This document shows, piece by piece, positions 4,092-28,200 of a stretch of 64,000 bases of DNA. Origin of the DNA: a virus; IMG/VR virus record IMGVR_UViG_3300037808_001516, positions 64,001 to 128,000 of that record, one strand, 5' to 3'. The position numbers and the translations under genes are program-made. Position 1 is the stretch's first letter; the number at the start of each line of letters is the position of its first letter. A model generated the notes under the pieces. The model was not told the DNA's origin. It made no database searches and was given only the letters and a program-made list of their open reading frames with translations.

Positions 4092-7000
4092 ATGAGATTT
4101 GCTCACATTGCGGACACCCATATCCGAAACCTAAAATACCATTTTGAATACAAAGATGTATTTCAACAACTTTATAAATCACTAAAAGAAGAAAAGGTGG
4201 ACTACATTATCCACTGCGGAGACATCGCACACACCAAGACACAAATCTCACCAGAGTTTGTGGACATGTGCAGAGACTTCTTCCAGAACCTTGCAGCCAT
4301 CGCACCAACCTACATCATCCTAGGTAATCACGACGGCAACCTTCGCAACGGTTCTAGGCAAGACGCTCTTTCCCCTATTGCAAAGGCAATCAATGACCCA
4401 AATCTCATCCTGTTAAAGAACGCCGGAGAGACAAAAATCAATGATAAGTTTTGTCTAAATGTTTTATCTGTATTTGATGAGGAAAACTGGACCGAACCAA
4501 CAGACTACAACCTAGTTAACATAGCGTTATATCACGGCGCTATTGATAAATCCAAAACAGACAGCAACTGGACACTAGGCGGCGACCATAGTATCGAAAT
4601 CTTTGAAGAGTTTGACTTTGGCTTTCTTGGGGATATTCACAAAACACAAAAGTTAGATAAGGAAGGTCGTATCTGGTATGCTGGCTCTACAGTTCAACAA
4701 AATTTTGGTGAGTCATTGGATAAAGGTTATCTACTTTGGGATATTGAAAGTAAAGACAATTTTACCAATAGACTCATTACCTTCAATAACCCAAAGCCTT
4801 TCATTACTCTTCCTCTAAGTGAGAAGGGCAATCTGCCAAGACTAAAGCCACCAGAAGGTGCACGTCTTCGTATCGTATCTGAGAGTAATGTATCTCTGGA
4901 CAAGGTTCGTAAGGCCGTCGACATTGCAAAATTTAAGTACAATCCTGAGTCGGTAACTTATCTTAACAGGGCTGCCGGTAAACAAATCAAAGTAGCAGCA
5001 CCAGAAGGTCTAGAGAAACAAGACTTACGAGACATCAAGACACAGGAAACTCTAATGGCTGAGTATCTAAAAGAATACGAGTCGACAGAAGAAGTTCTAG
5101 AGAAAGTTTATAAACTAAACAAAGAATTCAACAAGCAAATTGAAGAGAACGAAGACGTAATGAGGAATGTCAATTGGTCACTTCAGAGTTTGGAGTGGGA
5201 CAACCTATTCAACTACGCAGAAGGAAACAGGATTGACTTTACCAAATTAGAAGGTATCGTTGGTATCTTTGGGAAGAATTACTCAGGCAAGTCTTCTATT
5301 GTGGATACTTTGCTTTACTCTATGTATAACTCTACCTCGAAGTCTATTCGAAAGAACTTAAACATTATCAACCAAAACAAAGATGAATGTGTTGCCACAG
5401 CAACCATCAAGGTTGATGGAACAGACTACATCATAGAACGAAAGTCAAACAAGTACACAAAGCGCCTAAAGGGTGTAGAGACTCAGGAGGCAACGACGGA
5501 CTTAGAATTCTACTCAAAAGACGCGATGGGCAATCACACGGGACTCAACGGCACATCGAGACAAGATACTGACAAGAATGTGCGAAGATACTTCGGGACT
5601 CTACCGGACTTCCTCGCAACCTCCATGGCCTCTCAGTTGGACTCGTTGTCTTTTATCAACGAGGGTTCAACAAAAAGAAAAGAGTTTCTGGCCAAGTTCT
5701 TAGATTTGGAAATCTTTGATAAGAAGTTCAAGATGGCAAAGGAAGCTTCGGCCGAAATCAAAGCGTCTCTCAAGAGGCTCGAAGGTATCGACTTTGATGG
5801 AAACATCAAGGACATCAAATCGGAAATCACCAAGGGAGAGCTTGCAATCGAAAAGAACAAAGCAATCTGCAGCACCCTCAAAGAAGAGCTAGGAGACTTA
5901 TCACAAGCTCTAAACGACCTTCAGAATAAGATTGCATCAGTTCCAGCAGACGTCATAGACCCTGTGATGACATCACGGGCCATAGCGAACAAGCAGCAAG
6001 TGATACTACAGACCACAGCTCAGAAGACTGAGGCTCAACAGCTACTAATGGAGAACGAGACAAAATTTGAAAAGATAGACACGTTTCTCGCAGCATTCGA
6101 AGTAGATTCATACCGAAAGAAGAAAGAACTTATCGATTCTAGTTCTGAAGATCTTGAATTGTTGCTTGCTCAAATGGAGAGTGAATCTAAGAAGAAGAGT
6201 AGAAATAGAGAAAAACAAGACCTACTATCACAAGTGCCTTGCGGGTCACAATTTCCCACTTGCAAGTTCATCAAGGATGCGCACCAAGCAGTCGATTTGA
6301 TTCAGATATCTGAAAAGAAGATGAGTTCTATGTCTAAAGATATCAATTCTTTAGGAGAGAAAATTTCTTCACTGGAGCCTTTGAAGGTGGCAAGCCATCT
6401 TGATAAGTACAATCAACTGGTGGAGAAGAGAAATCAAATAGCAACAACAATCGCAAACAGCAAGCTCGTTGTTGAACGCGCAGACAGCTCCCTGTTCAAG
6501 GAGCAGGTTGAATTAGATGAGCTTAATACCAAGGCAAACTTGTACGAAGAAAACAAGGAAGCTATCGAAAACCTAAAACAACTCCTATCAGATAGAGACA
6601 ATTTGAAGGAACAGGCATTATCGAAAGAAAGGGAGCTTACATCATGCGATCAGAGAATTATGCAGCTTCATAAGAAGCACGGCTCATCAGAGCAAAAGCT
6701 GGTTCACATGCAACAACAACACAAGGAGTTTCAAGAACTAGAAGAGAACTTTGCTGCCTATCACTTGTTCATGGTTTGCTGCCATCCCAATGGTGTTTCT
6801 TATGAAATCATAAAGGAGAGGTTGCCTTACATCAACCAAGAAATCTCCAAGATCTTGACAAACATTGTAGACTTCGAGGTCTTTATCTCTAACAATGAGG
6901 ACAAGCTTGACATCTTTATCAAGCACCCAAGCCACGACCCTCGTCCATTAGAGATGGGATCTGGTGCAGAGAAGACAATCGCATCAATGGCCATTCGACT

Positions 7001-23230: not shown

Positions 23231-23719
23231 ATGTCTGAAGATAACAAATGGTCACAACCAGCATCACCGCCGCCGCCCTTGTTTACGGGAAAGAAGGAAA
23301 AAGACCTTGTAAAGCAAGTCAACGATGAAATCATCGAAAGAGTTGTTGGGCAGACAATAGCATACTACCCAGTAAGCTTGGAGCATACAAATTTTCACGA
23401 AATCTATGGAGAAGCCATACAAAAGTCTTTTTTAAACCCAATAAGAGTCTATGCGATGGTCTCTTATGTGTCAGAGACAACCACGACCACTCCGCTTGGC
23501 GTAGACAGGGTTGAAAGAATAAAGGTATCGTTTCACAAAAGAAGATTAACAGAAGATCAGGACCTCTTTGTCAGAGAAGGGGACTTTGTACAGTACGGTG
23601 ATAACTTTTATGAAATATTGACACTCTCTGAACCGATTTGGCTTTACGGACAAGTAGAATCGAAGTTCGAAATAACCGCAGAGTGCGTCAGAGCTAGAGA
23701 GGGTTTATTTAATGTCTGA
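23231..23719 (+). CDS. neck/head-closure protein (T4 gp14-like)
   Basis: GQTIAYY...IYGE..., VREGDFV; synteny after gp13-like. Confidence 0.7.
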   Translation: MSEDNKWSQPASPPPPLFTGKKEKDLVKQVNDEIIERVVGQTIAYYPVSLEHTNFHEIYGEAIQKSFLNPIRVYAMVSYVSETTTTTPLGVDRVERIKVSFHKRRLTEDQDLFVREGDFVQYGDNFYEILTLSEPIWLYGQVESKFEITAECVRAREGLFNV

Positions 23720-24530
23720 AATTACCAACGATGTGAAAAAAGTCTACTTTGACCCATCAACTATTGAAACTATTGACAAATCTGTGTTAAACTTTATTAA
23801 AGGATTGAATCTTTTCTCGAATACTAATGAAGGGTGGAGAGAGGTTCCAGTGGTGTGGGGAACTTCAGAGAGAGCATTCCTGGTAAAGAACAGCAAGGAC
23901 ATAAGAGACCAGCAAGGGATCCTAAAGTTGCCAATAATATCGGTATATAGAAGCTCCATAGTGAAAGACATGTCGAGTAAAGGAGTATTCCAGGGCAATG
24001 TGCCTGGCAACAACGACGAACAAGGAGGAAGCCTTGTTGTGTCGAGAGTCATAAACCAAGATAAAACAAAGAACTTTGCAAACGCAGACGCAAAGAGACT
24101 CTATAAGCAGGAGAACTATCCTTACGATAATCAGAAGATTGTATACAAAACAGTCAGTGCACCAATGCCTGTAAATGTAACAGTATCATATGAAATTACG
24201 ATAAGAACAGAATATCAGCAACAAATGAACGAATTAATGTTGCCTTTTATCACAAAACCTGGTACTATAAACTATGTAAATTTACAAGAAAGCGAACACA
24301 GATTTGAAGGATTCGTAGACGGAAACTTTAATGACCAAGGAAACTTGCAGAACTTCTCTTCTGATGAGAGAAGGTTTGAGACCAAGATATCATTAAGAGT
24401 TGTCGGGTATTTAGTCGGTGAAGACAAAAATGGAGAAAGACCACACTACTCGATCCGAGAAAATTTTGTAGAAGTAAAGATGCCAAAAGAAAGAATTATA
24501 ATAGATCCCGATGAGTGGGACAAGACATAA
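23712..24530 (+). CDS. tail terminator/sheath stabiliser (T4 gp15-like)
   Basis: VPVVWG...ER, LPIIS, PMPVNVTVSYEITI..EYQQQMNEL; synteny. Confidence 0.7.
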   Translation: MSEITNDVKKVYFDPSTIETIDKSVLNFIKGLNLFSNTNEGWREVPVVWGTSERAFLVKNSKDIRDQQGILKLPIISVYRSSIVKDMSSKGVFQGNVPGNNDEQGGSLVVSRVINQDKTKNFANADAKRLYKQENYPYDNQKIVYKTVSAPMPVNVTVSYEITIRTEYQQQMNELMLPFITKPGTINYVNLQESEHRFEGFVDGNFNDQGNLQNFSSDERRFETKISLRVVGYLVGEDKNGERPHYSIRENFVEVKMPKERIIIDPDEWDKT

Positions 24531-25169: not shown

Positions 25170-25278
25170 AAGCAGACGTTCGTTAGCTTCATTTAAATAA
25201 CATTCCCTCATATTTAATACTCTTATATTTTATAAAATAATATTATTTTTTATATAACATATATAGGAGGAAAAATAT

Positions 25279-28200
25279 ATGGCTTATGAAATAAGTTCTT
25301 CCGTCGCAAACTCTACTTTCGCTATTCAGGGGGTGACCTCATCCGTTACAAACGGATTCGAGCAAGGCGGCAAGTTTAGCCCAGACGGAACGAAATTGGC
25401 TGTGGGCACATATCGCCATGGCGGAGCCGGATCAACGGACTATGGTATAGACATCTATACCTCAGCCTCATCTGGCGGATGGACTCGAACAGAATCCATC
25501 GACACCGGAACCAGCGGCCCCGGGGCCCACATGGAGTGGTACTCAGCCACTAATATCTTTGCGATTGTTGGAAACAACATCAAAAACTTTCTCAGTGGCG
25601 CTTCTGGTTGGTCAGCCGGTCAGGTTAACGTTGCAACTGGTGGTGATCGTTACTTTGAATTCAACCCAAGTAAAACGATTCTCGCAACATGGAAAGGTAC
25701 AGACCAAAACTGGAGGTCTATCTATTCAGGCTCAGGAAACTGGACTTCAACATCAGACCAGTCCGCAGGCAGCTATGGCGACCTGCAGAGTTTGGCTTGG
25801 ATATCTGATGATGTTATCGCTTTAGGTTATCCAGAGAACTCATCCTACAGAGGTATCTTGTTGACTTACAAGACAACTAACGGTGGCTCTAGCTATAGCA
25901 TGGCTGAATATCTGAATGGCGATTCAGTCCAGTTGCCAGGTATGGGTGCTGCTTTGTATTATCACACGTCGAGCAACGCTCTTCTCGTGGGAACACGCGC
26001 CGCTGCAGCTGACACTGAGAATGCTAAAAACAAGCTAATCTTGATCCAGTCAGGTTCTGAAGGTCACCTACCTGCGAGCTATACCTCTCACACGGTTATA
26101 GACTCTGGTAAAAGACCGATAGACGGCTTTCAGACTGCACCACAGTCTGGAAACGGTGATAGAGTGCTCATGGTTACCCATGATGACGGTGCTGACGATG
26201 CTGACTTGTTAGCAATCGAATCCGGATCGGCCGGATGGAAAGTTACAGTAATCGATGATAACATTCAAGGCCCAAGTTCGGAAGGTAATATTGATATATC
26301 ATCTCTCGGTGCTGTTGTTTCGAATGACATTGGAAACGGCTCCGGCCAGGCTACCTTTGTAGTCAGGCAGATGATATCTGCAGACCCAGCACTTGCATCT
26401 ACTGTTGCATCGACTGTTGGCAGTTCCGGAGGAACCGTTAAGGCAGGTGGTACTAATTCATCCCCTGTAGGTCAGGTTGTAATACCGTCAAACGCGCTTG
26501 GCGGTAATGTGTCCGTCAGTGTTGATACCGCGCATGCGTCGTCGTCCGTCAAATTAGGCTTAAGAACGCTAGGAGAAGCTTCTAGTAATATAATTCGCCT
26601 AACGCCACATGGCACAAAGTTTAGTTCAGCAGTTACAGTTACGATTCGTTTGAAAGATGGAGCTTCAACCGACAACTTACAGTTGTTGAAAAGAAACAGT
26701 GAAACCGGACAATGGTATGATACCGGAGTCAGCTTATCTGTTTCTTCAGGCACAGTATCTTTCACCACTACTAGCTTTAGTGATTATATAATAATAGGAG
26801 GACAAAAAGTGGCTAGAACAAAAATAAATAATATACAATTAGATAGATTAGAGAGGGCAAACTCGGTCTTAGCTTCGGCTTTGAACCTTACAGCTTCGGC
26901 AAACACAGTTGCACTGGATGTGATTGATTCAGACAGATTTTTACTGCAATCAGCAAGTGGAGAATCTCAGATAGTCTCAGCATCGGCTATAGCAACATAT
27001 ATGGCAACAAAGGTACAGCCTACCCATATCCAAACAACGGATACGGACACAGCAGGGACATATAGAGTCACGTTTACAGACTCAACAGACACAGATACTA
27101 CATCACAAATCTTTACTGATGGTGATCTAGTTTTTAATGCAGGAACAAATGCTTTAAGCATGGCAATCCTGTCAGCATCATCAGATATCAGCGGCTCAGC
27201 TGCACTTTTCGTAGGATCTAGTGCAACCGTTAATAATGGGCTCACAGTCACTGCTGGTGGCGCAACAGTTACAGCGGGCGGACTTACCGTCTCGGCTGGC
27301 GGAGCAAGCATAACAGGACCAGTAACTTCATCTGCAGCTGTAAGGACCGGTGCAGGCTTGATTACTGGTCAATCTATTTTGGACATTGGTACAGACAGTG
27401 ATCCTGATGCACTAAGAGTTGGTTCAAGTAATGTTAATGTTTCATTGTCTCTTGAGTCGAGTGGTCCATCCTCCGGTGCATTTACTGTAGCCGGCGGCGT
27501 CGGTATCGGCGACGACCTTTTCGTCGGTAATGAAATATCTGGTTCTGGTGATCTTAAAGCAGGAACCATCACCATGGCGGAATTCACTGTTGCTAGAAAT
27601 GGTAACACTGATATTGATGGTACCTTGAACGTTGAAGGTGTTCCAACTTTTCAAGCTGGTGCAGTCTTTTCGTCCGGTATTACAACCGCAGGTGCAATTG
27701 CAGGGGCAACAACAATCTCTGGTTCGAGCACAATCTCAGGCCATGCCTTGGATATCGAAACGGATGCAAACGTCGCAGGTGACCTTACTGTTGTTGGTGA
27801 TCTTGTAATTCAGGGCGCCACAACAACGATTGAAACCACAAATCTTCTCGTGGAAGATAGCTTGATTGAGATCGCCCGCGGCAATGGCGGCTCTAGAGCA
27901 TCCAATGCAGGAGCTGGTCTCTTTATTTCTGGTACATTGGCTAACGATGTTTCACTTACTGTACAAGGCAGCGGCGGACGACTTAGAGTCAGCGGTTCCA
28001 CCCCTGGTTTTGATACTGTGTTTGGCGGTTCTTACGCCATCAACGGAAGCTCGGTCCTCAACAACACAACACTTGGAAGCTCTGTTGTTAATTCAAGCTT
28101 GACTTCCCTCGGGACACAAGCAGAAGCGTTGAACATGGGCTCTCAGGGCATTACTGCTGCTGGCGCAATCGCTGGTGCATCAACTGTATCTGGTTCTGGT

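Follow-up and report, generated by a model that had tools for sequence, protein, structure and literature searches.

Can one phage fiber gene specify two fibers by carrying a second start codon inside its own reading frame? The question is raised by a 1350-codon open reading frame (ORF) in the IMG/VR virus record IMGVR_UViG_3300037808_001516, of which bases 64001-128000 (of 143.9 kb) were analyzed as one 64-kb stretch, referred to here as the window; all coordinates are counted from its first base unless another record is named. The ORF encodes a beta-propeller, then a ZU5 domain, then a fiber. A first-pass annotation of this DNA had pointed to an in-frame GTG at 26809, codon 511, that would open an 840-aa product, and had proposed that the phage makes fibers with and without the N-terminal module, which might give mixed trimers or two receptor specificities. 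Coordinates and a reading of the ORF bore out the codon, its frame and the product length ((26809-25279)/3 = 510), and the proposal of two forms was supported by every computational test that the annotation had suggested for it. From the translation signals, their conservation at the nucleotide level, the predicted folds and a stand-alone ortholog, all described below, we infer that both products are made, and that the locus is probably a conserved gene-within-gene yielding long and short fiber forms.

Conservation of an in-frame start inside the fiber gene

The internal Shine-Dalgarno (SD) sequence, TAGGAGGA, is written in the Ile-Gly-Gly codons of the last ZU5 strand and is followed after 6 nt (CAAAAA) by the in-frame GTG; counted from its AGGAGG at 26796-26801, the A-rich spacer to GTG 26809-26811 is 7 nt long. 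The first-pass annotation had described this context as a close mirror of the main start, and the likeness can be given a number: the window contains three copies of the pattern TAGGAGG-N5-8-RTGGC, compared with an expectation of 0.05, and two of them are the main (25264) and the internal (26795) sites. The main start region itself is nearly identical to the upstream context of the long ORF in relative L048. The DNA at the internal start is AT-rich, also as described earlier, with a GC content of 0.28 at 26750-26849 compared with ~0.47 gene-wide. Predicted RNA folding of the 51-nt stretch around the internal start amounts to -0.7 kcal/mol, compared with a gene mean of -10.2, which places it among the weakest 0.8%, and weak folding at the corresponding junction was found in 16 of 16 loci (weakest 0.5-22% of the stretches folded per ORF).

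Within this genome, where AGGAGG precedes a start codon and an ORF of 50 aa or longer, the site is a true gene start in 12 of 14 + strand cases, and only the sites at 24023 and 26796 fall deep within ORFs. A 4-mer SD core was present at 58% of first starts (115 + strand ORFs), compared with 15% of control positions. The other deep-internal case, at 24023-24041 (AGGAGG, 10 nt, in-frame GTG 24039), is located within a 272-aa ORF (23712-24530) in the neck gene cluster, 109 codons from the beginning of that ORF, and would yield a 163-aa nested product; homologs of that ORF are 414 aa long in L002 and 274 aa in L046.

In IMG/VR and metagenome contigs, 36 loci with 26 distinct junction sequences were located, the metagenome scan patterns taking in the residue before the start, so that fused forms only could turn up there. 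All 26 distinct junctions carry GGAGG(A/T/G) followed, after 5-7 nt, by an in-frame ATG or GTG. The residue at the start position is Met or Val in every relative, and each Val at this position is encoded by GTG, yet GTG makes up only 10% of Val codons. Over a 28-codon block, the Ile/Leu-Gly-Gly codons are fixed as (A/T)TA GGA GG(A/T/G), whereas the third positions of their neighbors vary freely. The codons used at the junction are rare ones in the same ORFs: GGA accounts for 14-26% of Gly codons, ATA for 10-29% of Ile codons, and TTA is a minor Leu codon (8-23%). In three loci (L011, L030 and L032), Ala-Val-Glu-Asp replaces x-Ile/Leu-Gly-Gly, and GGAGGA is retained, shifted by one base relative to the codons; its retention in a shifted register despite the changed peptide indicates that selection acts on the bases and not on the peptide. 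Continuous homologs without a ribosome-binding site, which the first-pass annotation had named as the counter-case, were not encountered among these sequences: the fused homologs run continuously across the junction, and all keep the binding site together with ATG or GTG.

Two other accounts were considered and rejected. Sequencing error or a false fusion is ruled out, as more than 20 independent assemblies show an open frame here. An internal promoter was likewise set aside: sigma-70-like matches are as frequent in the gene as in shuffled sequence, and relatives do not share the AT-rich run of the window. A 400-aa protein from TARA (P0146) shows a variant of the junction, with one extra residue between the motif that ends the ZU5 domain and Met, which is preceded by A-T-I-G-D-S-N.

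Proteins that begin where the nested product would begin were also found. The first 140 residues of the nested product were used as a HMMER query against 1.84 billion representative proteins, and the fiber N-domain was located at residue 1 of six of them (P0125, P0127, P0131, P0133, P0134 and P0137) and likewise at residue 1 of P0007; the stand-alone form was read in DNA for the P0007 type (L046) only, and some of the other stand-alone proteins are possibly truncated calls. In ten longer proteins the domain is internal, always aligned from its first residue and preceded by 303-886 residues ending in T-T-x-F-S-[DEQ]-[YF]. Homologs starting at the equivalent of MARTKI, for which the first-pass annotation had suggested a search, thus include a syntenic stand-alone gene: in L046 (IMGVR_UViG_3300032088_000004), a 1186-aa fiber gene starts with Met at the residue equivalent to 511, is preceded by a 190-nt AT-rich spacer with an SD of its own, and follows an adaptor-like 419-aa gene and genes of 162, 274, 108 and 70 aa, with the sheath gene next. 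The short product therefore matches a complete, independently encoded protein of a relative. The spacer in L046 also holds a tandem repeat at 5866-5905 of that record, with a unit of ~14 nt (TTTTTCACCTAGCA, 2-3 copies). A scan with P0125 returned unrelated fiber genes that match its middle part and not its start. A two-gene form, in which head and ZU5 would end in a stop codon ahead of a separate fiber gene, was not found in the ten longer ZU5 matches or the 36 loci, which is weak evidence of its absence.

The head module and the ZU5 domain

The N-terminal module had been described as a propeller, and structure prediction of residues 1-375 upheld this description. The AlphaFold 2 (AF2) model is a 24-strand beta-propeller with a mean per-residue confidence (pLDDT) of 66, and all top Foldseek matches to the head are propellers (E ~1e-8, TM ~0.5). 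These matches are to generic propellers only, and a specific propeller function was dropped as a candidate on that account. Among relatives, sequences of at least four unrelated classes, 510-1162 aa in length, precede ZU5. The propeller of L030 is 94% identical to that of the window over 371 aa, and it stands next to a ZU5 domain and junction of the Val-Glu-Asp type. Finding this propeller on the other junction type implies that heads are exchanged at a point upstream of ZU5, and the comparison of L030 with the window suggests that phages have recently exchanged the head module. As read from these sequences, the ZU5 domain, the nested start and the fiber N-domain travel together. The same propeller was also found, at 55% and 37% identity, in P0122 and P0123 (576 and 579 aa), which lack both ZU5 and fiber and in which the N-terminal 75 aa and the C-terminal domain are of another kind; as a module, the propeller thus circulates independently. 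The middle part of the fiber varies in length among the complete fibers compared, and the conserved end domains are listed with the other features in Table 1.

The ZU5-like domain noted in the first pass was recovered as a fold by structure prediction and structural comparison. The AF2 model of residues 368-530, computed with ten homologs in the input, has a pLDDT of 82; it extends only 20 residues past the junction, with low confidence there. The best 17 Foldseek matches all come from the ZU5 domains of ankyrins and UNC5b, the lowest E being 1.6e-8; the ZO-1 ZU5, GAIN domains and the rat NLRP1 FIIND follow lower in the list. VIA-align superposes the model on the ankyrin-B ZU5 with Z 15.7 and a root-mean-square deviation of 2.8 over 131 residues (model range 6-144), and gives Z 9.7-11.5 to GAIN domains and 9.4 to the rat NLRP1 FIIND. 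The alignment runs as far as model residue 144, equivalent to residue 511 of the protein, and so the end of the ZU5 fold coincides exactly with the nested start; the AT-rich run and the SD code for the final strand of the fold, Tyr503-Gly508. At the profile level, ankyrin ZU5 ranks first in a PDB profile search (E 0.016). The Pfam ZU5 model (PF00791) scores 12.4 bits on the protein of the window (E 0.19), below its gathering cut-off of 21 bits; on relatives it reaches 27.9 bits in L007, above that cut-off, and 19.4-19.8 bits in L003, L019 and L010.

Some ZU5 domains cleave themselves, and the loop between the last two strands of the phage domain contains a candidate site, Phe500-Ser501. The distance from the surrounding motif TTSFSDY to the nested start, put at about 9 residues in the first pass, is in fact 8, the motif ending at Y503. 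In the AF2 model, residues 133-135 form the loop between strands 125-132 and 136-141. Neither Phe500 nor Ser501 varies in the alignment or in any junction read, whereas residue -2 is S, R, Q or K; His444 is near-invariant but absent in the L011 type. CARD8 and NLRP1 cleave between Phe and Ser of the sequence SFS and PIDD at the same bond of HFS (D'Osualdo et al. 2011, PMC3210808). In CARD8 and NLRP1, cleavage requires Phe and the second Ser but is little affected by residue -2, which is dispensable in CARD8, and the non-cleaving UNC5b has Leu at the Phe position (PMC3210808). The remark in the first-pass annotation that SFS here takes the place of HFS is therefore favorable to cleavage, because CARD8 and NLRP1 cleave at just this sequence, and the invariant Phe-Ser with a variable -2 residue gives the site the features of the cleaving ZU5 subgroup. 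By analogy with CARD8, NLRP1 and PIDD, the long form may cleave itself between Phe500 and Ser501, after which the head would be held non-covalently by the last strand; we put this forward tentatively, as somewhat short of an even prospect.

Table 1. Coordinates of the features at the fiber locus, in bases of the window
Feature	Position	Strand	Basis or remark
Main translation initiation region of long form: TAGGAGG, 8-nt A/T spacer, ATG 25279	25264..25281	+	
Long ORF, 1350 aa: beta-propeller, then ZU5, then fiber	25279..29331	+	ORF reading
Beta-propeller head module, residues ~27-329, 24 predicted strands	25357..26265	+	AF2, Foldseek
ZU5-fold domain, residues 373-510; last strand coded by AT-rich and SD bases	26395..26808	+	
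Phe500-Ser501, candidate autoproteolytic bond, loop between last two ZU5 strands	26776..26781	+	
Internal SD TAGGAGGA, codes Ile-Gly-Gly of last ZU5 strand	26795..26802	+	Kept in 26 distinct junctions
Predicted nested ORF, short fiber, 840 aa, start GTG 26809	26809..29331	+	ATG/GTG in all relatives; stand-alone homologs
Conserved N-terminal domain of fiber, ~130 aa	26809..27198	+	HMMER
Conserved C-terminal domain of fiber, last ~60-70 aa	29119..29328	+	Common to 20/20 complete fibers, fused or not
Intrinsic terminator-like hairpin, 9-bp stem (7 GC pairs), T-rich tail, between fiber and sheath genes	29356..29388	+	

Probable initiation at two sites weighed against other explanations

On the reading that we prefer, ribosomes would start at ATG 25279 to make the 1350-aa long form, with its exchangeable beta-propeller head, ZU5 and fiber, and would also start at GTG 26809, using the SD written in the codons of the last ZU5 strand, to make an 840-aa short form that would correspond to the stand-alone fiber of relatives without a head module. 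Should the long form cleave itself, the ratio between initiation at the two sites would determine how many fibers, or how many chains per trimer, bear the head. Several points weigh against this reading. GGAGG is found at -16 to -5 of 7 of 1071 internal in-frame ATG/GTG codons in this genome, so that a single genome cannot exclude chance; for the internal site, chance is excluded because the site is conserved across relatives. These loci are themselves related, however, and the junctions are therefore not 26 independent trials. SD-led initiation is atypical for Bacteroidota, which counts if the host belongs to that group, a possibility hinted at by the nearest cultured relatives; SD use by the genes of the phage itself is nevertheless clear (58% of ORF starts). 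The phage is uncultured, and both products are predictions from sequence. Finally, the invariant Phe-Ser offers a possible second route to a free fiber, which could make internal initiation unnecessary.

Taken to its end, this last point leads to an explanation in which the long form alone is translated, cleavage of ZU5 between Phe500 and Ser501 frees the fiber and the SD-like bases serve, for example, as a pause for ZU5 folding. The predicted fold with an invariant Phe-Ser in the loop ahead of its last strand fits this account, as does the fact that cleavage-competent ZU5 domains require exactly these two residues (PMC3210808) and that bacterial ZU5 autopeptidases accompany beta-propellers at the base of filamentous proteins (PMC3482391). 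What a pause leaves unexplained is the codon 6-7 nt downstream, which is invariably ATG or GTG to the exclusion of other Val, Ile or Leu codons, and the existence of stand-alone orthologs that begin at that very residue; cleavage as the sole source of free fiber is accordingly improbable. Cleavage and internal initiation might also act together, with the head clipped on via the last ZU5 strand after self-cleavage at Phe500-Ser501 and internal initiation supplying head-less chains, a combination that we regard as rather unlikely although less so than cleavage by itself.

The remaining explanations grant the internal site no present role in translation. The first-pass annotation had offered, as an alternative to two forms, a recent fusion that kept its old ribosome-binding site, and the SD could in principle be such a relic of two joined genes that has merely not decayed and has no present function. 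The stand-alone gene of L046 and the resemblance between the internal context and the main start are what one would see in that case. The fused layout, however, spans lineages that are only 36-57% identical at the junction and carry unrelated N-terminal modules of at least four classes, and this distribution in the sequences makes the layout old rather than a recent fusion. Moreover, flanking synonymous sites are saturated, yet the SD and the start show no variation and are spelled with rare codons, and where the peptide differs the SD persists in a shifted register, all of which leaves an undecayed relic a very slim prospect. Nor do we give much credit to a role as cassette boundary, in which the short repeats at the main and internal starts would serve recombination that swaps or deletes heads. 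Heads are indeed mosaic, as seen in the 94% identical propeller of L030 beside a different ZU5 and junction type, the head module is flanked by repeats resembling translation initiation regions, and a relative without the module exists. The exchange point implied by L030 is nevertheless upstream of ZU5 and not at the junction, the shared stretch amounts to merely ~9 + 5 nt, and recombination would not require an in-frame start codon at SD spacing; such a boundary function is highly improbable. Initiation at both starts remains the account that we favor.

Genome context and comparison with known systems

The long ORF lies between genes for the head and for the tail: the major head protein (18700) and a head-tail adaptor-like gene (21966) precede it, and the sheath (29441), tube (32860) and hub (33469) genes follow. 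The phage is a distant T4-like myovirus, and the position of the gene suggests a neck or whisker-type fiber. By capsid protein, the nearest cultured relatives are Flavobacterium phage immuto, Microcystis phage Mel-JY01 and Rhodothermus phage RM378, at 42-47% identity. The gene itself had no match in 50,697 phage records searched by megablast and tblastn, and Pfam and PHROGs searches with both halves of the protein returned a sub-threshold ZU5 match only. Downstream of the fiber gene, the strong terminator-like hairpin (Table 1) indicates that this gene may end a transcription unit. The tail sheath gene that follows (29441-32815) is unusually long at 1124 aa, and the 496-position PHROG sheath profile is stretched over the whole protein, which indicates large insertions in the sheath protein.

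We found no paper on ZU5 in a phage fiber or on a nested start in a fiber gene. Nested in-frame phage genes are known mostly as single cases, whereas here a family of uncultured marine myoviruses appears to keep one, with the variable part of the family placed ahead of a conserved fiber and swapped between phages in at least four unrelated classes. If the heads bind hosts, the locus offers a testable model for changing or mixing specificities in these phages, in which the dose of a bulky tip would be set by translation and not by separate genes. Were both mechanisms true, the two start sites would set the number of heads per trimer or virion, the system would be the first viral use of a tethered autoproteolytic joint of the ZU5/GAIN type, and it would allow host-range modules to be plugged in at the N-terminus of a fiber. 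For annotation, the rule that follows is that these fibers should carry two coding-sequence (CDS) features.

Among known systems, the closest in domain order are bacterial RHS and polymorphic toxins, in which ZU5 autopeptidases stand at the N-terminal base of filamentous proteins, often together with a beta-propeller (Zhang et al. 2012, PMC3482391). The order of beta-propeller, ZU5 and long filamentous part is the same here, and the likeness is one of domain order: RHS repeats, a toxin domain and SpvB are absent from the phage protein, which is a fiber with a nested start. The ZU5/FIIND domains of PIDD, CARD8 and NLRP1 (PMC3210808) share the fold, the Phe-Ser in a loop ahead of a long strand and the unconserved residue -2. 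They differ in that the context here is viral and structural, and in that the ZU5 domain is followed by a fiber domain and not by a demonstrated UPA domain.

T4 fibritin (wac) and other neck fibers are, like the fiber described here, fibrous proteins with conserved end domains, encoded beside neck or adaptor genes and ahead of the sheath gene. This likeness is one of gene position, as no sequence or profile similarity was found with Pfam, PHROGs or cultured phages. In the GAIN domain of adhesion G-protein-coupled receptors, the cleaved last strand stays bound, cleavage falling between Leu and Thr of the motif HLT. The GAIN fold is related (Z 9.7-11.5), and the candidate site of the phage domain likewise sits in the turn ahead of the last strand; the likeness is structural only, and the cleavage motif differs from the Phe-Ser found here.

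In-frame nested phage genes expressed by internal initiation are exemplified by T7 gene 4A/4B, lambda C/Nu3 and phiX174 A/A*. As at the present locus, each has a second in-frame SD and start codon and a C-terminal part shared by both products, the short form being the functional core to which the long form adds an N-terminal domain. The fiber locus differs from these cases in that its forms, so far read from sequence only, would be those of a virion fiber, with an exchangeable head and with the second SD set inside the last strand of a ZU5 domain.

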